DNA from: Candidatus Krumholzibacteriia bacterium
GTDB lineage: Bacteria; Krumholzibacteriota; Krumholzibacteriia; LZORAL124-64-63
Assembly: GCA_036351155.1 (NCBI GenBank)
Contig: JAZBOO010000040.1
Location: forward strand, 1-7,390
Direction: 5' to 3'
DNA: 7,390 nt
The first letter of the stretch is position 1. Each line of letters begins with the position of its first letter. Positions 601 through 7,368 of the stretch are shown piece by piece. Both the position numbers and the translations under genes were made by a program. The notes below the pieces were generated by a model. The model made no database searches. It was not told where the DNA came from and saw only the letters and a program-made list of their open reading frames with translations.

Positions 601-1218
601 GTGAACACACTGCATCGACCCGAATCCCGCAAGGACCAGTTGCTGGCGCAGGCGACCCTGCTGTTCAGCAACCACGGGTTCGATGGTACCAGCATGCGCA
701 TGATCGCGCGTGCCAGTGGCATCACGGAAGCGGCCATTTACCGGCATTTCGACAACAAGTCCCATCTGTACGAAGAAGTGATCCGGGCCAAAGCCCGTTG
801 TCACGACATCGCGCAACTGCGTGAGGAAACTCCCGCCGGCGAGGACGTGGAAGGCCTCCTGACCAGGATCGCCCACCACATCCTCAACCTGGCGGCCCAG
901 GATCCTCAGCTGATGCGCCTGATGTTCCATAACAGCCTGGAGCGCGGGGCCTTCTCGGCCCTGCTCTTCATGGAAGTGCGCCTGCCGTATATCGAGTTTC
1001 TGGCTGAGGAACTGGCCAACCGCATGAAGGTTGGCGAGGTGCGCAGGGTTGATCCGCTGATCACAAGTCGCTGTTTCGTGGGCATGGTCATGGACTGTGC
1101 GCTGAACATCGGCGTGTGGACAAAGATGTTGGATTCCCAGTTCGAGGCCAACGACGTGGTCTGCAATAACGTGCCGATCTTCGCTCGTGGCCTCTTGACC
1201 GAACAGGCCGCCCACTAG
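601..1218 (+). CDS. TetR/AcrR family transcriptional regulator
   Basis: Typical N-terminal HTH (LFSNHGFDGTSMRMIARASGITEAAIYRHFDNKSHLY), 205 aa, GTG start with GAGG at 591-594, helical C-terminal domain containing 'GEVRRVDP'. Confidence 0.95.
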   Translation: MNTLHRPESRKDQLLAQATLLFSNHGFDGTSMRMIARASGITEAAIYRHFDNKSHLYEEVIRAKARCHDIAQLREETPAGEDVEGLLTRIAHHILNLAAQDPQLMRLMFHNSLERGAFSALLFMEVRLPYIEFLAEELANRMKVGEVRRVDPLITSRCFVGMVMDCALNIGVWTKMLDSQFEANDVVCNNVPIFARGLLTEQAAH

Positions 1219-1231
1219 GGCGCCTGCAACC

Positions 1232-1237
1232 GGGGAG
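1232..1237 (+). promoter_or_regulatory. Ribosome-binding site of the cytochrome gene
   Basis: GGGGAG 6 nt upstream of ATG 1244. Confidence 0.75.
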
Positions 1238-1243
1238 TAACCG

Positions 1244-2767
1244 ATGAAACGCATGATTCCTTTCAGCATCCTGGCGGTTCTGCTGGTGCTGACCTTCCTG
1301 TGCGGGTGTGAAAACGACACCGGCAACGATCTGGGCGAAGGCCCGGGCGGCGGTGGCACCACCACCGACATGTCCTGCCTGGGTTGTCACTCCAGCCAGA
1401 CCATGCTCGAGGAGGCGCTGGGCGAAGAAGGCGCCAAGGTGGAGGTGGCCATCAAGTCGGATGGCTGAGGCGGCGAAGTACCCCCGCTGGAAGCGTGGGA
1501 AAAAGTCATCATCACCGGCAACAATGGCACCCAGTTCCTCAACAGTGCGCATGGACCCGACTATGAAGGGGACCTGGTCCCCCACGTGCTGACCTGTCAG
1601 CATTGCCACGCCGGTCCCGCCGATTTCACCTTCGAAACCGCGGCCCAGGCCCACGACGGCATGATTGCCGACCCCAGCAGCTTCGGCACCTCGGGCTGTG
1701 TGCAGTGTCACGCACCCGACTTCGCGGAGAACGCCTGCGACGGCTGCCACTCCCAAGCAGTGGACGCCACCCGCAACAGCCTGCACACCAACCTGTGGGG
1801 CTACAAAGACGCCATCGAGGCGCGCTGTACCGCGAACTTCGACGAGCTGGGCGTGGAAGAGGGCTTCCAGGCCAACTGCGCCGGTTGCCACACCACTTGC
1901 GGACAGTGCCATATCAGCCGTCCCAAGAGCGTGGGCAGCGGTTTCATCCAGATCGCCGGTTCCCCATACTCGCACCGTTTCCGTCCCTCACCGGACATGA
2001 ACGAGCAGTGCATTGCCTGCCACGGCAGCCGCATCGGCAACGACTTCCTGGGTCAGTCCGAGGGTAACGTGGAAGACACGCACCGCCAGATGCAGTGCAA
2101 GGGCTGTCACACCATGGAAGAGATCCATGGCGACCCCACGCACACCGAGGAGAACCACTACAACGATCGCTACGAGGTGACCAACATGCCTCGTTGCGAG
2201 GAATGCCATGGAACCGAGGCCGAGTGGGACAATAGCTACCACAACGCCCATGTCGACGGCTTCGCCTCGAACCTGCAGTGCCAGGTCTGCCACTCGCAGC
2301 CCTACAAGAACTGCACGAATTGCCACAACCTGGGATCGGGCGAGAAGAGCCCCGACAAGTACGACATCGACCCCAGCATGGTGCAGCTGAAGATCGCCCC
2401 CAACGATGGTGGTCCTTCAGGCCTGAACAACCCCAACCGTGCCGAGTACGATTACGTGCTGGTGCGCCACACGCCCGTGGATCCCGGCACTTTCGACGAC
2501 TGGGGACTGTCTTTGCCCAACTACACGGCCGTGCCCACCTGGAAGTACACCTCGCCGCACAACATCGTGCGCTGGACCGCCCAGACCACGGTTGAAGCGG
2601 GGCAGAGCTGCGGCACTTCCTGCCATGGCACGCCCGACAGTCCGGAAGGGTTCTTCCTGCGGGAAAGCGACCTGTACGAGACCGATGGCGTGACCCGGCT
2701 GCCCGACTATGACGCCAATATCAATTTCGTGATGCCGGACCCCGACAAAGTGAAGTCCGACAAGTAG
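1244..2767 (+). CDS. Multiheme c-type cytochrome lipoprotein (11 CxxCH + 1 CxxxCH), probable selenoprotein with Sec75 encoded by TGA 1466-1468; 507 aa
   Basis: ORFs 1244-1468 and 1586-2767 share a frame, and the 39 codons between them are open (GGEVPPLEAWEKVIITGNNGTQFLNSAHGPDYEGDLVPH). The N-part has a lipoprotein signal (FLCG|C22) and CLGCH. The C-part has CQHCH, CVQCH, CDGCH, CAGCH, CGQCH, CIACH, CKGCH, CEECH, CQVCH, CTNCH and CGTSCH but no export signal. A SECIS-like hairpin follows the TGA. The cytochrome call is secure; Sec read-through is inferred. Confidence 0.85.
1482..1499 (+). promoter_or_regulatory. Candidate bacterial SECIS element
   Basis: CCC-CGCU-[GGA]-AGCG-(U bulge)-GGG: 7-bp stem starting 14 nt after the UGA, with an apical loop whose first G is 21 nt after the UGA. 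This fits the general bacterial SECIS geometry. Folded by eye only. Confidence 0.7.
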
Positions 2768-2781
2768 TTTCGTTCGCAAGA

Positions 2782-2847
2782 CTCCCCGCAGAACACTCTG
2801 CGGGGAGCATCAACAGGGGATCTTCCCCGAACCGGATCGCTGATCCG
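2782..2847 (+). repeat. Three tandem inverted repeats (hairpins) in the cytochrome-rhodanese intergenic region
   Basis: CTCCCCGCAGA-acac-TCTGCGGGGAG (2782-2807, perfect 11 bp); GGGGA-tct-TCCCC (2816-2828); CGGATC-gct-GATCCG (2833-2847). None is followed by a U-tract. Confidence 0.8.
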
Positions 2848-2857: not shown

Positions 2858-2864
2858 AATGACA

Positions 2865-4754
2865 ATGTTGAAACGCTGGTTCCTTCTTGTGATCATGATG
2901 CTCGCCCTGGTGGCCTTTACCGGTTGCTCCGACGACGACGACCCGGTTAACCCGCCCTCCGGCGACACCGCCTTCGAAGTCATGGTGGCCGCCGGCAAGG
3001 CGTACATCAACGACAGCGCCCAGTGCCCTGGCGTGATCAGCGCCCAGGCTGTTTATGATAACTTGGACGACTACACGGTCATCGACGTCCGGTCCATGGA
3101 CCATTACCTGGCCGGTCATATCCCCGGTGCCTACCAAACCACCTGGTCCACCTTCCTGGACGACCTGGCCAACAACATCCCCACCGGCAAGCCCTACGTC
3201 ATCACCTGTTACACGGGCCAGTCTGCCGGTCACTACAAGATTGCCGCCGAGATGATGGGCTACGATGATGTTTATAGCCTGCTCTGGGGCATGAGCTCCT
3301 GGAACGAGAACACCGCCGGCAACAAGTGGCAGGGCAACGCCATGGTGGATGACGCCCTGGGCGCCGCCAATGCCGAGCAGACCAACAACAACGGCGATCT
3401 GGTCGAGCATGACTTCCCCGTGCTGACCGAAGACGCCAGCACCGTGGTGGCCGACCGCGTCGAGGCCATGCTGGCCGCCGGTTTCCAGGCCACTTCCTAC
3501 GCGGCCATCCAGGACAACCTGGACGACTACTTCGTCATCAACTACTTCGGCGAAGCCGACTACCTGGGCACCGGCGGCTCGGGCGTCCCCGGCCACATCC
3601 CCGGCGCCTTCCAGTTCACCCCCTACGCCAGCCTGGGCGACGACCAGATGCTGAACAACCTGCCCAGCGACGGCACCACCATCGTGGTGTACTGCTGGAC
3701 CGGACAGCACAGCAGCCAGGTCACCGCGTACCTGAACATGCTGGGCTACAACGCCAAGAGCCTGGCCTACGGCAGCAACAATCTGTTCTACAGCAGCCTG
3801 ACCGCCCACAAGTGGAACGACGCCAACTGCATGAACTTCGACATGGAAATGGGCCCGATGATGACCGGCGACTTCGCCGCTCTGGTCGACGCGGGTGACG
3901 ACTACATCAACGACAACACCGACTGCCCCGGCACCATCAGTGCTCAGGCCCTGTATGACAACCTGGACGACTACACCGTGATCGATATCCGTGGAGCCAC
4001 CGATTACGCCGACGGCCACATCGTCGGCGCCATCAACAGCTCGCTGACCGACCTGATGACCGACCTGACCGACGGCACCATCCCCACCGGCAACCCCTAC
4101 GTGGTGGCTTGCTACACCGGCCAGGCCGCCGGCCACGCCAAGCTGGCCATGGAACTGATGGGTTACGAGAACGTCAAGACCCTGGCCTGGGGCATGAGCT
4201 CCTGGAGTCCTGATGTGACGGGGACGAACTGGGCAACCTCGACCATGGTCGCCGACGCCTTGGGCGCCGCCAATGCCGAGCAGACCAACAACAACCCGGA
4301 CCTGGTCTGGGGCGACTACCCCACCACCACCGGCACCATGGAAGACCGCGTGAACGCCATGCTGGCCGCCGGCTTCCAGGGCGTCAGCTACGCCTCGATC
4401 CAGGACAACCTGGATGACTACTTCGTGGTCAACTACTTCGGCGAAGCCGACTACCTGGGCGAGGGCATGTCCGGCGTGCCCGGCCACATCCCCGGCGCCT
4501 TCCAGTACACTCCCTATGCCAGCATGGGCATGGGCGAGATGCTGGCCTACCTGCCCACCGACCAGACCATCGTGGTGTACTGCTGGACCGGCCAGCACAG
4601 CAGCCAGGTCACCGCGTACCTGAACGTGCTGGGCTACACGGCCAAGAGCCTGGTCTACGGCAGCAACAACCTGTTCCACAGCAGCCTGACCGGCCACAAG
4701 TGGAGCAGCGCCAACGTCATGGACTTCCCGCTGCACAACTCCGTCACCAACTAA
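2865..4754 (+). CDS. Four-domain rhodanese (sulfurtransferase)-like lipoprotein
   Basis: Lipoprotein signal MLKRWFLLVIMMLALVAFTG|C21. Rhodanese signatures VIDVR...Y..GHIPGA and VIDIR...DY..GHIVGA, plus two further GHIPGA. Active-site loops CYTGQSA (Cys 3207), CWTGQHS (3693), CYTGQAA (4110), CWTGQHS (4581), with 'LWGMSSW' and 'LAWGMSSW' after loops 1 and 3. Stop is TAA. Confidence 0.92.
   Translation: MLKRWFLLVIMMLALVAFTGCSDDDDPVNPPSGDTAFEVMVAAGKAYINDSAQCPGVISAQAVYDNLDDYTVIDVRSMDHYLAGHIPGAYQTTWSTFLDDLANNIPTGKPYVITCYTGQSAGHYKIAAEMMGYDDVYSLLWGMSSWNENTAGNKWQGNAMVDDALGAANAEQTNNNGDLVEHDFPVLTEDASTVVADRVEAMLAAGFQATSYAAIQDNLDDYFVINYFGEADYLGTGGSGVPGHIPGAFQFTPYASLGDDQMLNNLPSDGTTIVVYCWTGQHSSQVTAYLNMLGYNAKSLAYGSNNLFYSSLTAHKWNDANCMNFDMEMGPMMTGDFAALVDAGDDYINDNTDCPGTISAQALYDNLDDYTVIDIRGATDYADGHIVGAINSSLTDLMTDLTDGTIPTGNPYVVACYTGQAAGHAKLAMELMGYENVKTLAWGMSSWSPDVTGTNWATSTMVADALGAANAEQTNNNPDLVWGDYPTTTGTMEDRVNAMLAAGFQGVSYASIQDNLDDYFVVNYFGEADYLGEGMSGVPGHIPGAFQYTPYASMGMGEMLAYLPTDQTIVVYCWTGQHSSQVTAYLNVLGYTAKSLVYGSNNLFHSSLTGHKWSSANVMDFPLHNSVTN
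3003..4727 (+). repeat. Intragenic tandem duplication of about 0.9 kb (unit 1 ~3003-3839, unit 2 ~3903-4727)
   Basis: Matching blocks at offsets of 888-903 nt, e.g. TACATCAACGAC at 3003/3903 and ATCCAGGACAACCTGGA at 3507/4398. Segments 3681-3815 and 4569-4703 differ at 8 of 135 nt by manual count. Confidence 0.95.
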
Positions 4755-4769
4755 TCCTGGCTGGGACGC

Positions 4770-4803
4770 AAAAGGGAGGGCCTTCGGGCCCTCCCTTTTT
4801 TTT
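4770..4803. terminator. Rho-independent terminator, probably bidirectional
   Basis: AAAA-GGGAGGGCC-TTCG-GGCCCTCCC-TTTTTTTT: 9-bp stem, cUUCGg tetraloop, U8 on + and U4 on -. It lies between the convergent stops at 4754 and 4820. Confidence 0.95.
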
Positions 4804-4819: not shown

Positions 4820-5590
4820 TTACCGCACCGGCCGCGTGAACAGCCAGTTCCCCCCGTCAGCGGGCGGTTCCTCCGCAGCCTCCCAGCCCAGCGCATTGAA
4901 CCCCAGCAAATCTTGCGGCGTGGTCGCTCCCGACTCCAGCGCGTACTTGACCAGCGCGCCGCGGGCCATCTTCGAATGCACCGCGACGGTCTTCAAGCTG
5001 CCGTCCGGCTTCTCTTCCTTGAACACCAGCGAGATCAGGGGACCTTTCAGCTGCTTCAGATCCAGGGCCTTGATGTACTCCTGGGCTGCCACGCTGATCA
5101 CCGGCTCGCCCTTTTTCAGGTCGGCGTTGAGCGCCGCGGTGAGCGGTTCCTTCCAGAACTCGACCAGATTTCGGCACCCCCTGGGCTGCAGCTTGCTCCC
5201 CATTTCCAACCGGTAGAACTCGATCAGATCGAGCGGGCGCAACAGACCGTAAAGGCCCGACAGGACACGCACATCACGCTGAGCGTGCTTGAGCTGGGCG
5301 GGGGTCAATGTCTCCGCCTCGATGTACTTGTAAACCAGTCCGGTGAAGGCGAAGAGGGCCGGTGCCTGAGGTTGCCCAGCCTGCCCCCACAGCGCGGCAG
5401 CGGCCTTGGTCTCGGTGGCCAGCTTGGGACTCACCGACATCAGCTTGGCCAGCTTTGCTTCACTCAGGGGCCGCAACTGATCGGCCAGCTGCTGGGCCTG
5501 CTCCAGCTGCCGGGCCTTCGTGGCCCGAGGTGCACGCGGATAGGCGATCCCCGCATCCATGGTCTTGGTGGAGTTCAACAGGATCTTCAC
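4820..5590 (-). CDS. yaaA: YaaA / UPF0246 (DUF328) peroxide-stress DNA-binding protein
   Basis: 256 aa with family motifs 'LAKLMSVSPKLA', 'PALFAFTGLVY', 'VLSGLYGLLRPLDLIEFYRLEMG', 'SKMARG' and terminal 'FTR'. The GTG start overlaps the uup stop (GTGA), with GGAG just upstream. Confidence 0.93.
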   Translation of the reverse strand: MKILLNSTKTMDAGIAYPRAPRATKARQLEQAQQLADQLRPLSEAKLAKLMSVSPKLATETKAAAALWGQAGQPQAPALFAFTGLVYKYIEAETLTPAQLKHAQRDVRVLSGLYGLLRPLDLIEFYRLEMGSKLQPRGCRNLVEFWKEPLTAALNADLKKGEPVISVAAQEYIKALDLKQLKGPLISLVFKEEKPDGSLKTVAVHSKMARGALVKYALESGATTPQDLLGFNALGWEAAEEPPADGGNWLFTRPVR

Positions 5591-7368
5591 AGGGACTCCA
5601 GCTCCTCCCAGCGGGCATAACCCGCCTCCAGTTCCGCCTCGATTTCCTCGAGCCGCTTCTTCAGATCGACCACCCGGGCGGGAGCTTCCTGGTACAGCTT
5701 GGGGTCGGCCATCTGCCCGTGGATCTGCTCCTGCTCGGCCTCCCAGACTTCGATTTGCCCGGGCAGCGCCTCCAGCTCCTTCTTTTCCTTGTAGCTCAGG
5801 CGGCGCGGCTGGTCGACCCTGGGCTTGGCTTTGCCCTCTTTTTTCTTGGGCTTCTCGCCGGCTACGGTCTGCCGCGAAACCCGCGCCCAGTCCGAATAGC
5901 CGCCCACCGTCTCGGTCACCCGGCCGTCCCCCTCCAGGGCCAGGGTGCTGGTGGTCACGTTGTCCAGGAACTCGCGATCGTGGCTGACCAGCAGCATGGT
6001 CCCCTCGAAGTTGACCAGCAGCTCCTCCAGCAGTTCCAGGGTTTCCAGGTCCAGGTCGTTGGTGGGTTCGTCCAGCACCAGCAGGTTGGCCGGCTGGGTG
6101 AACAGGCGGGCCAGCAGCAGGCGGTTCCGCTCGCCTCCCGACAGATGGGTGATGGGCGACCGCGCGCGATCGGGCGAGAACAGGAAGTTCTGCAGATAGG
6201 TGATGATGTGCATGGGCTGGCCGTTGAAGTTGATGGTGGGGTTGCCCTCACTCACGTTCTCCAGCACCGTCTTGGTTTCGTCCAGCTGGGCGCGCTGCTG
6301 ATCGAAGTAGGCCACCTGCAGCTTGGTCCCGGTCTGGATAGTGCCCTCGGTGGGCGCCAGCTCTCCCAGCAGCAACCGCAGCAGGGTGGTCTTGCCCGAG
6401 CCGTTGGGGCCCAGAATACCCACCTTGTCCCCGCGCATGATCATGGTGTTCAGGCCCTGGACCATCACCTTGTCCGGCCAGGAGAATGCCAGGTCCCGGG
6501 TGCGGATCACCAGCCGGCCGCTCTGGTCGCTGTCCTGCAGCTGAATACGCGCATCACCGGTCTGGGTCCGGCGCGACTGCCTCTGCTCGCGCATCTCCAT
6601 CAAGGAGCGCACCCGGCCCTCGTTGCGGGTCCGGCGGTCGCGCACCCCCTGGCGGATCCACACCTCTTCCTCGGCCAGCTTGCGGTCGAAGGCCGCCCAC
6701 TGATTCTTCTCGTCGCGCAGGTGCTCGTCGCGGCGCACCAGGAAGGTGTCGTAGTTGCAGGTCCAGTCGCGCAAACGGCCGCGGTCTAGCTCGATGATCC
6801 GCTGGGCCACCGCCCGCAGAAATGCCCGGTCATGGGTCACGAAGAACAGGGCCCCACTGAAGCGCGCCAGCTGATCTTCCAGCCAGGCGATGGCGTCGAT
6901 GTCCAGGTGGTTGGTGGGTTCGTCCAGCAGCAGCAGATCCGGCTCGATGACCATGGCCCGCGCCAGCAACACCCGGCGCTTGTTGCCCGCCGACAGGGTG
7001 GAAAACTCGGCACCTCCGTCCAGCCCGGCGCGGGTCAGCACCTGGGCCACCTGGTTGGCCAGCTCCCACGGTCCGGCATCTTCCAGATGGGCAGCCAGCC
7101 CCTGGGCCACCACCTCTTCCACCTTGCCCGTCAGATCGCGAGGCACTTCCTGAGGCAGATACCCCACCCGCAGGCCGCTTTGACGCAAGATCTCGCCGCC
7201 ATCCGGCTTGAGCTCACCGCTCATGATGCGCAACAGGGTGGTCTTGCCTTCACCGTTGCGGCCGAGCAGACTGGCCCGTTCGCCCTTCTCCACCCGCAGG
7301 TTGACATCCTGCAGGATGGCCGGGCCGCCGAGGGCCAAGGTGAGGTTTTTGAGTTCGAGTATTGCCAT
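5587..7368 (-). CDS. uup: ABC-F family ATPase, Uup-like
   Basis: Two ABC domains (GRNGEGKT / LSAG / LLLLDEPTNHLD / VTHDR and GPNGSGKT / LSGGE / LLVLDEPTNDLD / VSHDR), linker 'EEVWIRQGVRDRRTRNEGRVR', C-terminal coiled coil 'LSYKEKKELEALPGQIE...RWEELE'. No transmembrane segments. Confidence 0.93.
   Translation of the reverse strand: MAILELKNLTLALGGPAILQDVNLRVEKGERASLLGRNGEGKTTLLRIMSGELKPDGGEILRQSGLRVGYLPQEVPRDLTGKVEEVVAQGLAAHLEDAGPWELANQVAQVLTRAGLDGGAEFSTLSAGNKRRVLLARAMVIEPDLLLLDEPTNHLDIDAIAWLEDQLARFSGALFFVTHDRAFLRAVAQRIIELDRGRLRDWTCNYDTFLVRRDEHLRDEKNQWAAFDRKLAEEEVWIRQGVRDRRTRNEGRVRSLMEMREQRQSRRTQTGDARIQLQDSDQSGRLVIRTRDLAFSWPDKVMVQGLNTMIMRGDKVGILGPNGSGKTTLLRLLLGELAPTEGTIQTGTKLQVAYFDQQRAQLDETKTVLENVSEGNPTINFNGQPMHIITYLQNFLFSPDRARSPITHLSGGERNRLLLARLFTQPANLLVLDEPTNDLDLETLELLEELLVNFEGTMLLVSHDREFLDNVTTSTLALEGDGRVTETVGGYSDWARVSRQTVAGEKPKKKEGKAKPRVDQPRRLSYKEKKELEALPGQIEVWEAEQEQIHGQMADPKLYQEAPARVVDLKKRLEEIEAELEAGYARWEELESL

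Follow-up and report, generated by a model that had tools for sequence, protein, structure and literature searches.

We analysed a stretch of DNA from a Candidatus Krumholzibacteriia bacterium, referred to here as the window, which is a whole contig of 7390 bases (C40 of a 4.19-Mb assembly with 405 contigs). Positions 1244-2767 very probably form one gene for an exported, twelve-haem cytochrome c lipoprotein whose in-frame UGA encodes selenocysteine (Sec), as judged by comparison with its relatives. The cytochrome represents a genuine and widespread family of multihaem selenoproteins that was found in no catalogue checked. An earlier description of this DNA, made from its letters without database searches (the sequence-only reading), had proposed a 507-aa lipid-anchored multihaem selenoprotein at this place. 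The proposal is supported by the conserved TGA codon, the single reading frame, the sel genes of the genome and a covarying hairpin, and on this comparative evidence we consider the identity as a selenoprotein highly probable.

One reading frame interrupted by a single TGA

Two open reading frames (ORFs) are called in the region, one of 74 aa (1244-1468) and one of 393 aa with a GTG start (1586-2767). They share the same frame and are separated by one TGA codon at 1466-1468, in the context KSDG-U-GGEVPPLEAWEKV, which is the sole in-frame stop before the TAG at 2765-2767. The 117 nt that follow the TGA (1469-1585) are open in the frame of the downstream ORF, and translation of 1244-2767 across the TGA gives a product of 507 aa. 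This product contains 12 haem sites, 11 of them CxxCH motifs and one a CxxxCH motif (C456-H461); one site lies before the TGA and 11 lie after it. The upstream piece carries a signal peptide ending in the lipobox L-C-G-C22 (family consensus L-W-G-C), and the family continues from the lipobox cysteine as C-[ED]-N-D-T. No signal peptide is present on the downstream piece. The sequence-only reading had described the two ORFs as one frame broken by a single TGA, with a coding-like stretch behind it, 11 haem motifs in the downstream piece and an export signal on the upstream piece only; all of this was accurate, down to every coordinate. It had also stated that standard gene callers split the gene, and such splitting occurs in nearly all database entries.

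The same splitting would be seen if the TGA were a true stop and the 11-haem part were a separate gene translated from an internal start, for which GTG 1586 is present, with a distant AGGGGA upstream. However, GGxVPxLExWEKV, which directly follows the TGA and lies ahead of any start codon, ranks with the best-conserved stretches of the cytochrome. The frame is continuous across the TGA in all aligned loci, the start positions chosen by gene callers differ between relatives, and the downstream piece lacks a signal peptide although export is needed for haem loading. An arrangement of two separate genes, which we rejected on the conserved residues after the TGA, the continuous frame and the missing signal peptide, is thus very improbable.

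Conservation of the TGA codon

Sixty-one related genomes, counting that of the window itself, were searched in all six frames, and 28 of them yielded the cytochrome. Twenty-five of the 26 matches covering residue 75 hold exactly one TGA, and the other one holds none. A pattern scan over one genome for each of 185,579 species led to 289 confirmed relatives, and the best 80 of them were taken. Most of the 289 come from uncultured Krumholzibacteriota, Eiseniibacteriota and groups close to them. Residues 41-112 were aligned to 100 loci, drawn from two locus sets that overlap and hold some duplicates. At the aligned site 97 loci have TGA, one has CAA and the remaining two, which are identical in sequence, have TGG; the 80 distinct 63-nt segments comprised 78 with TGA, 1 with TGG and 1 with CAA. 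TAA or TAG at this site, or the two parts lying in different frames, would have spoken against a selenoprotein according to the sequence-only reading. The frame was always one, and no codon other than these three occurred. Carriers of the TGA reach down to 36-40% identity and are labelled Krumholzibacteriia or Krumholzibacteriota, Eisenbacteria or Eiseniibacteriota, Latescibacterota and Gemmatimonadota, along with other labels of metagenome-assembled genomes, some of which are probably unreliable.

Conservation at the protein level was followed in an alignment of 68 Sec-type sequences. Three sequences that were truncated or wrongly bounded were kept out of it, as were the two non-TGA loci; ten more loci had been left out beforehand, seven for failing the start-codon rule, one for want of a lipobox and two for running off the contig. 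Residues G74, U75, G76, G77, V79 and W85 are invariant in all 68 sequences.

Viewed alone, a single in-frame stop on a low-coverage metagenomic contig might be a nonsense mutation, the mark of a pseudogene or an assembly error at 1466-1468. Yet the same codon is present in 97/100 loci that carry many phylum-level labels. When assembled contigs were compared, those of X1, which may be the source sample, were identical to the window over 1200-1507 and hence over the TGA site. A contig of X4 spans the whole cytochrome gene at ~93% identity. The TGA is kept in so many loci, with invariant flanks, that neither a sequencing error nor a pseudogene or chance stop can account for it; we give virtually no credence to this explanation, which the comparative data already refute. 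A reassigned genetic code was considered as well. By our own count 26 of 73 family genes terminate in TGA, and because the same genes use this codon as their terminal stop, it is not reassigned in these organisms and this possibility was ruled out.

A covarying hairpin after the UGA

A hairpin resembling a selenocysteine insertion sequence (SECIS) starts 12 nt after the UGA. The version in the window forms 7 of 8 pairs, with one C·U mismatch. Over the 78 TGA-type sequences, pairing holds in 90.9% of the hairpin cells; sliding the 3' partners by 1-3 columns lowers this to 22-54%. At one pair, 36 of the 78 sequences have A-U and 29 have C-G. The switch changes the encoded residue on the 5' side (Glu or Ala), and its counterpart on the 3' side is synonymous, in an Ala codon. 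Fourteen divergent sequences have the hairpin moved 2-3 nt upstream over the same peptide, with the loop GUU (GGU in two of them). In this shifted register 93.9% of the cells pair, and one pair occurs as G-C (6 sequences), C-G (5) or A-U (3), never unpaired. The hairpin is not predicted in either of the two non-TGA loci for which DNA is at hand.

A second UGA of the same genome provides a comparison. The selD gene (G000:C334, L004) has its own in-frame TGA, in the motif SAG-U-AAKL, followed by a 6-bp hairpin with loop GGG that starts 11 nt after the UGA, nearly the same spacing as in the cytochrome gene. We take the position after the UGA and the G-rich loop to fit the bacterial SECIS consensus. 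A Sec-type formate dehydrogenase, sought for further comparison of SECIS elements, was not found in the genome.

Selenocysteine machinery and forms without the UGA

The presence of selA, selB, selC and selD in the genome had been put forward as a check on the selenoprotein, and all four are there: the genome holds selA, selB, one tRNA-Sec (anticodon TCA) and the Sec-type selD. The selA gene is present in 60 of the 61 related genomes, with or without the cytochrome gene, and in all five further genomes reached through loci of distant carriers, including those with the Trp-type and Gln-type forms described below. Every carrier genome tested has selA except G009, which holds just a C-terminal fragment of the gene. 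This co-occurrence agrees with Sec decoding but does not discriminate, and because selA is present in the genomes of the Trp and Gln forms, loss of the machinery does not explain the loss of Sec there.

Forms lacking Sec at the site are few. Two have Trp (P0006, which is locus L016, and P0009), one has Gln (P0032, which is locus L078), three have Pro (P0046, P0051 and P0126) and one has a deletion (P0059). In a quick maximum-likelihood tree of 74 rows, supported by SH-like approximate likelihood ratio tests only, these forms nest inside Sec-type clades and imply at least two to three separate losses. Other conserved residues change with them. Lys355, found in 99% of the 68 Sec-type sequences, is replaced in 6/6 non-Sec forms (by N, T, R, R, R and Q); Arg263, found in all 68, is changed in 4/6, and Gly76 in 5/6. 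L078, which has CAA in place of the TGA, is also the only relative with 4 kb of downstream flank that has no rhodanese gene there, and it lacks the upstream TetR gene. The series from Trp to Pro to deletion looks like decay following a change of TGA to TGG. The sequence-only reading had held that Trp, Gly, Arg or variable residues at the site would count against Sec. Trp, Gln and Pro do occur; these forms are nonetheless rare, nested in TGA clades and stripped of further invariant residues, and in the two with DNA they have no hairpin, so that they look like secondary losses of a Sec-dependent activity rather than evidence against Sec.

Several points weigh against Sec insertion. Selenoprotein families are typically marked by a Cys form, though this is not obligatory, and neither the 100 loci nor the called proteins that read through the site include a homologue with Cys there. 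Of the two things that the sequence-only reading expected in homologues, TGA or Cys with conservation on both sides, only the TGA was therefore seen. A search of the representative library with residues 41-130 gave 9 matches, of which two read through the site, both with Pro, and none had Cys; a protein homology search with residues 40-115 gave 30 candidates, none of them significant. Trp appears twice among the non-TGA forms, as UGA-to-Trp read-through would also predict. The plain fold of 1460-1540 is no more stable than that of shuffled sequences (z = +0.94), and an Rfam scan of the whole window returned no match to a SECIS family. With the energy of the single sequence unremarkable and Rfam without a match, the case for the hairpin is one of sequence comparison; the hairpin implied by the sequence-only reading directly after the UGA stands by covariation in two registers, not by folding energy. 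Finally, the sole contig from an RNA library that crosses the UGA (X7, 1412-1634) possibly stems from DNA carry-over or from a relative.

These observations could also be accommodated if the UGA were read through without Sec, for example by tRNA-Trp, or acted as a leaky regulatory stop, giving a 74-aa monohaem lipoprotein along with some full-length protein, the hairpin merely promoting read-through. The absence of a Cys form, the hairpin energy and two independent non-TGA lineages with TGG would fit such a scheme. If Trp were functional, however, TGG, only one transition away, should be common, and yet TGA is kept in 78 of 80 distinct sequences. The TGG forms are also altered at the flanking Gly residues and at Lys355, and L016, the sole TGG form with DNA, has no predicted hairpin. 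Because TGG is rare and comes with changed Gly and Lys355 residues and without the hairpin, Trp is no stand-in for the normal residue. Moreover, the hairpin is similar in position and loop to that of selD in the same genome, and selA accompanies the cytochrome in the tested genomes, the fragment in G009 apart. We consider read-through without Sec improbable, and retain selenocysteine as the probable residue at position 75.

The lack of Cys forms may have a chemical basis. In the selenoprotein MccSep, the U325C variant is reported to be almost inactive (PMC13510729), and such an effect would explain why Cys is no acceptable substitute in this kind of chemistry.

Haem sites, fold and relation to known families

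Eleven haem motifs are invariant among the 68 Sec-type sequences. The additional motif C152-H156 (1697-1711) and His114 (1583-1585) occur together in 22 of the 68, the window's sequence included, and this extra haem and its likely distal ligand seem to be gained or lost as a unit. Outside the motifs, His 103, 137, 181, 244, 280, 295, 333, 336 and 439 are conserved in 68/68 sequences and His409 in 67/68. As 11 invariant haem motifs face 10 conserved non-motif His residues, one core haem is left without a conserved His partner. No Cys outside the haem motifs is invariant (n = 68).

Family models placed the cytochrome in no known group. Pfam gave generic multihaem matches only, among which PF22113 (MtrC/MtrF domains II/IV) scored 23.8 bits against a cut-off of 30, and no NCBIfam family matched the read-through protein at E <= 1. 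An AlphaFold2 model was obtained with a mean predicted local distance difference test score (pLDDT) of 78.7 and a predicted template modelling score of 0.74. Foldseek returned nothing from the PDB at E <= 0.001 for this model. The best hit of a PDB sequence search was flavocytochrome c3, at E 0.027 only, and a PDB profile search was headed by the surface undecahaem cytochrome 6qvm (E 2.9e-5) and SoxA (E 0.0012). MccSep and octahaem tetrathionate reductase (OTR) were not listed by the profile search, though the MccSep entries may lie outside the copy of the database used. A 1063-aa lipoprotein-like protein, P0124, was matched in 16 stretches, with query residues 52-89 as the matched part; its CxxCH motifs are paired within tandem repeats, and it probably has no relation to the family beyond being a repetitive multihaem protein.

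The closest precedent is MccSep, also known as ExtKL (GSU2937-2936 of Geobacter sulfurreducens; NF040886), likewise a multihaem cytochrome c selenoprotein that annotation splits at the UGA (PMC13510729, PMC6148476). The sequence-only reading had cited ExtKL in this role. It is a multihaem selenoprotein, now characterised as MccSep (PMC13510729), but by NCBIfam and NF040886 the present cytochrome is not a member of that family: a genome search with the NF040886 model (cut-off 250 bits) gave no match in the window. MccSep is described as a Sec-dependent reductase of polysulfide and selenite with its Sec in a D-G-U loop, and Arg and Lys mutants lose activity, as does U325C (PMC13510729). The cytochrome also has its Sec in a D-G-U loop, and the Arg and Lys that are important beside the Sec of MccSep may be compared with the candidates Arg263 and Lys355. 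The near inactivity of the U-to-C variant of MccSep fits the absence of Cys forms here. The MccSep cluster further includes the rhodanese-family lipoprotein ExtH and the outer-membrane beta-barrel ExtI, a likeness to the present cluster in context and not in sequence (PMC13510729, PMC6148476). In other respects the two proteins differ. About 12 haems are predicted here against 5 CxxCH motifs in MccSep; Sec75 is near the N-terminus, whereas Sec325 of MccSep lies in a C-terminal Ig-like domain; and the cytochrome is a lipoprotein, whereas MccSep is a soluble periplasmic protein. MccSep has a conserved haem-ligating Cys, while no invariant non-motif Cys is available here for a His/Cys-ligated haem, and Cys-type relatives are known in the MccSep family but none was seen in the family studied here.

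By VIA-align, the solved structure closest to the model is that of OTR (PDB 1sp3; Z 7.3, root-mean-square deviation 4.7 A over 272 residues, model residues 100-506; next entry Z 3.8), although a Z under 8 can mean a common arrangement only. OTR is a multihaem enzyme with sulfur and nitrogen compounds as substrates. With Foldseek the match to OTR has an E of 0.89. The OTR family TIGR04315 includes Sec-containing members, as noted in a review (PMC13188914). Applied to the window, this model reached 19.7 bits of the 375 required, with its positions 183-250 matched, and the Sec-bearing N-terminal module (residues 1-99) lies outside the structural match. Membership in either the ExtKL/MccSep or the OTR family was therefore rejected, both models being below cut-off or without a match. 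The genome encodes its true, canonical OTR in a separate gene (599 bits, no internal stop), together with an OTR-like protein (318 bits); the two lie at G000:C206 and G000:C338 (L110, L111).

Among prokaryotic selenoproteins, the only cytochrome-type entries in the available part of a 2026 review are ExtKL, the GSU2204 family and the OTR family (PMC13188914), and none of these three family models matches the cytochrome. Nor do cytochromes figure in the Haft preprint, which covers eight selenoprotein families. A search of the full-text literature, with subscription journals and the MccSep supplementary tables (which could list members) outside its scope, found no published description of the cytochrome family.

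Gene neighbourhood

The features of the window are collected in Table 1. In 93 of 99 loci the next gene after the cytochrome codes for a rhodanese homologue, and five of the six exceptions are contig ends. Upstream, a TetR homologue is found in 72/99 loci and the porin in 54/99. The porin fragment of the window alone has weak matches to outer-membrane protein families only, but its same-genus counterpart, L032:763-3330, matches Pfam PF11854 (MtrB_PioB) at E 1.5e-11. In that same-genus genome the genes follow one another as a 224-aa protein lacking Pfam matches, a 303-aa MtrA/NrfB-like multihaem cytochrome, the PF11854 porin, TetR, the Sec cytochrome and the rhodanese lipoprotein.

Table 1. Features of the 7390-base window, in order of position
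Feature	Position	Strand	Basis
MtrB/PioB-type outer-membrane beta-barrel porin, C-terminal 194 aa, off the contig start	1-585	+	61% identical to the end of L032:763-3330 (same-genus genome)
TetR-family regulator, ending 25 nt before the cytochrome gene	601-1218	+	Pfam TetR_N, E 1.4e-15
Shine-Dalgarno-like GGGGAG, 6 nt before ATG 1244	1232-1237	+	Read directly from the sequence
Very probably one gene: 507-aa lipoprotein multihaem cytochrome c with Sec75, 11 CxxCH and one CxxxCH	1244-2767	+	Read-through translation; whole-length family conservation; AlphaFold2 model
Lipoprotein signal peptide up to lipobox Cys22 (codon 1307-1309)	1244-1309	+	Cys22 in 68/68 aligned Sec-type sequences
In-frame TGA, probably read as Sec75; motif G74-U75-G76-G77-x-V79…W85	1466-1468	+	Aligned TGA in 97/100 loci
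SECIS-like hairpin, arms 1481-1488 and 1492-1499, loop GGA 1489-1491	1481-1499	+	Between-sequence comparison
Arg263 codon, just after the haem motif C256-x-x-C259-H260; candidate active-site residue	2030-2032	+	68/68 Sec-type sequences, changed in 4/6 non-Sec forms
Lys355 codon, between two haem motifs; candidate active-site residue	2306-2308	+	99% of 68 Sec-type sequences, replaced in 6/6 non-Sec forms
Perfect 10-bp inverted repeat CTCCCCGCAG…CTGCGGGGAG, no T-run after it	2781-2806	+	Read from the sequence; not listed as terminator-like
Lipoprotein with four rhodanese domains, lipobox F-T-G-C23 followed by SDDDD	2859-4754	+	Pfam Rhodanese, E 2.5e-48, 4 stretches
Strong intrinsic terminator ending the cluster, 13-bp GC-rich stem flanked by an A-run and a T-run	4770-4799	+	Terminator scan; sub-threshold Rfam sbrA
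YaaA	4820-5590	-	
ABC-F ATPase	5587-7368	-	Pfam

The active-site loops of the rhodanese domains read CYTGQS in two cases and CWTGQH in the other two, so each domain has its active-site Cys; these residues (C117, C279, C418 and C575) are invariant in 29/29 aligned orthologues. A signal peptide ending at a lipobox Cys opens each of the 39 distinct full-length orthologues. In 38 of them acidic residues come next, mostly as C-S-D-D-D-D, while L072 has C-S-E-S-T; the acidic stretch resembles the surface-export signal of Bacteroidota lipoproteins. A natural fusion was also found: P0132 is a 946-aa metagenome lipoprotein that combines a PKD domain, a rhodanese domain and a haem core 33% identical to cytochrome residues 162-462, without the N-terminal Sec module. 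JGI (Joint Genome Institute) annotation labels many truncated C-terminal pieces of the cytochrome 'thiosulfate/3-mercaptopyruvate sulfurtransferase', although these pieces have no rhodanese domain; the label is probably carried over from fused or neighbouring genes.

Lying between the cytochrome and rhodanese genes, the inverted repeat may form a hairpin for processing or stabilisation, or else act as an attenuator. The terminator after the rhodanese gene possibly serves both this gene and the convergent yaaA gene. It coincides with the only Rfam match in the window under E 0.01, the terminator-like sbrA, which falls below the gathering score.

Proposed function

The gene set resembles that of porin-cytochrome conduits. 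MtrCAB of Shewanella and OmbB-OmaB-OmcB of Geobacter with its regulator OrfR (PMC4282303) similarly combine a periplasmic multihaem cytochrome, an MtrB/PioB-type porin, a transcription factor and a lipoprotein multihaem cytochrome. The present cluster differs from these conduits in that its lipoprotein cytochrome carries Sec and is followed by a rhodanese lipoprotein, and from MtrC in that the PF22113 match stays below cut-off. A pairing of another kind is found in Wolinella succinogenes, where Sud, a rhodanese-like carrier of polysulfide sulfur, works with the respiratory polysulfide reductase; there the reductase is a molybdoenzyme and both partners are periplasmic.

We consider it likely that the gene encodes a Sec-decoded, exported cytochrome which would act as a chalcogen reductase within a conduit cluster. 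Translation would start at ATG 1244, and SelB with tRNA-Sec would decode the UGA at 1466-1468 as Sec, guided by the hairpin at 1481-1499. The 507-aa product would then be exported, lipidated at Cys22 and loaded with ~12 c-type haems, to serve as the terminal catalytic member of an outer-membrane electron conduit whose haem chain supplies electrons. Sec75 would be the catalytic nucleophile. Together with Lys355 and Arg263, near a haem lacking a conserved His as distal ligand, it would attack a chalcogen substrate, which may be polysulfide or elemental sulfur passed on as a persulfide by the rhodanese protein, or else selenite or selenium. The logic would parallel that of MccSep/ExtKL with ExtH and ExtI in Geobacter, on an unrelated protein scaffold.

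Within this proposal, analogy leads us to lean towards a sulfur or selenium reductase, though with little assurance. Substrate and topology are argued from analogy and gene context only, and this must be counted on the other side of the balance, as must the model confidence near residue 75, which is moderate (pLDDT ~62), and the closeness of Sec75, Lys355, Arg263 and a haem, which is itself a prediction.

A real selenoprotein might also have another task. It could be a reductase of metal oxides or electrodes of the MtrC/OmcB kind, its Sec having a redox or structural role, or it could oxidise sulfide, polysulfide or thiosulfate. The cluster make-up is indeed that of a porin-cytochrome conduit, the sub-threshold PF22113 match is to MtrC/MtrF domains, and the nearest solved relatives by profile are the undecahaem 6qvm and SoxA. 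On the other hand, the cytochrome gene is tightly linked to that of a lipoprotein with four active rhodanese domains, a fusion of a rhodanese with the cytochrome core exists, and no rhodanese gene occurs in the 4 kb downstream of the only Sec-less form whose flank is long enough. The linkage, the fusion and this exception speak for a role of Sec in sulfur or selenium chemistry, not in metal reduction, and they bear on the substrate, not on whether it is reduced or oxidised. We regard such a different task as unlikely, though a good deal less so than the alternatives to Sec insertion; its probability concerns the functional part only and is not to be added to those of the three other alternatives.

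As for topology, a location at the cell surface is possible, but we hold it to be less likely than not. In the same tentative spirit, the protein could be a selenoenzyme at the outer face of the cell, occupying the MtrC position of an MtrAB-type conduit and accompanied by a surface-anchored four-rhodanese lipoprotein, where it would reduce insoluble sulfur, polysulfide or selenium species outside. Sec75 would then act with Lys355 and Arg263 at the haem that lacks a conserved His as distal ligand, and might itself be a ligand of this haem.

It was only in 2026, with MccSep as a polysulfide reductase, that multihaem cytochrome selenoproteins were first shown to work in respiration (PMC13510729). 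The cytochrome described here adds a second multihaem selenoprotein family, which has no sequence relation to MccSep and is about double the size. In public gene calls nearly all of its members are cut short and some are mislabelled as sulfurtransferases, so that recognition of the family corrects annotation and enlarges the selenoproteome. It offers U75, K355 and R263 as candidate catalytic residues that can be tested. If the enzyme does act at the cell surface, it would represent a novel catalytic design that shares no sequence with MccSep, and would answer the question left open in the MccSep paper of how sulfur species from outside reach the enzyme. The family points to sulfur or selenium respiration via an outer-membrane conduit in phyla whose physiology is barely known.

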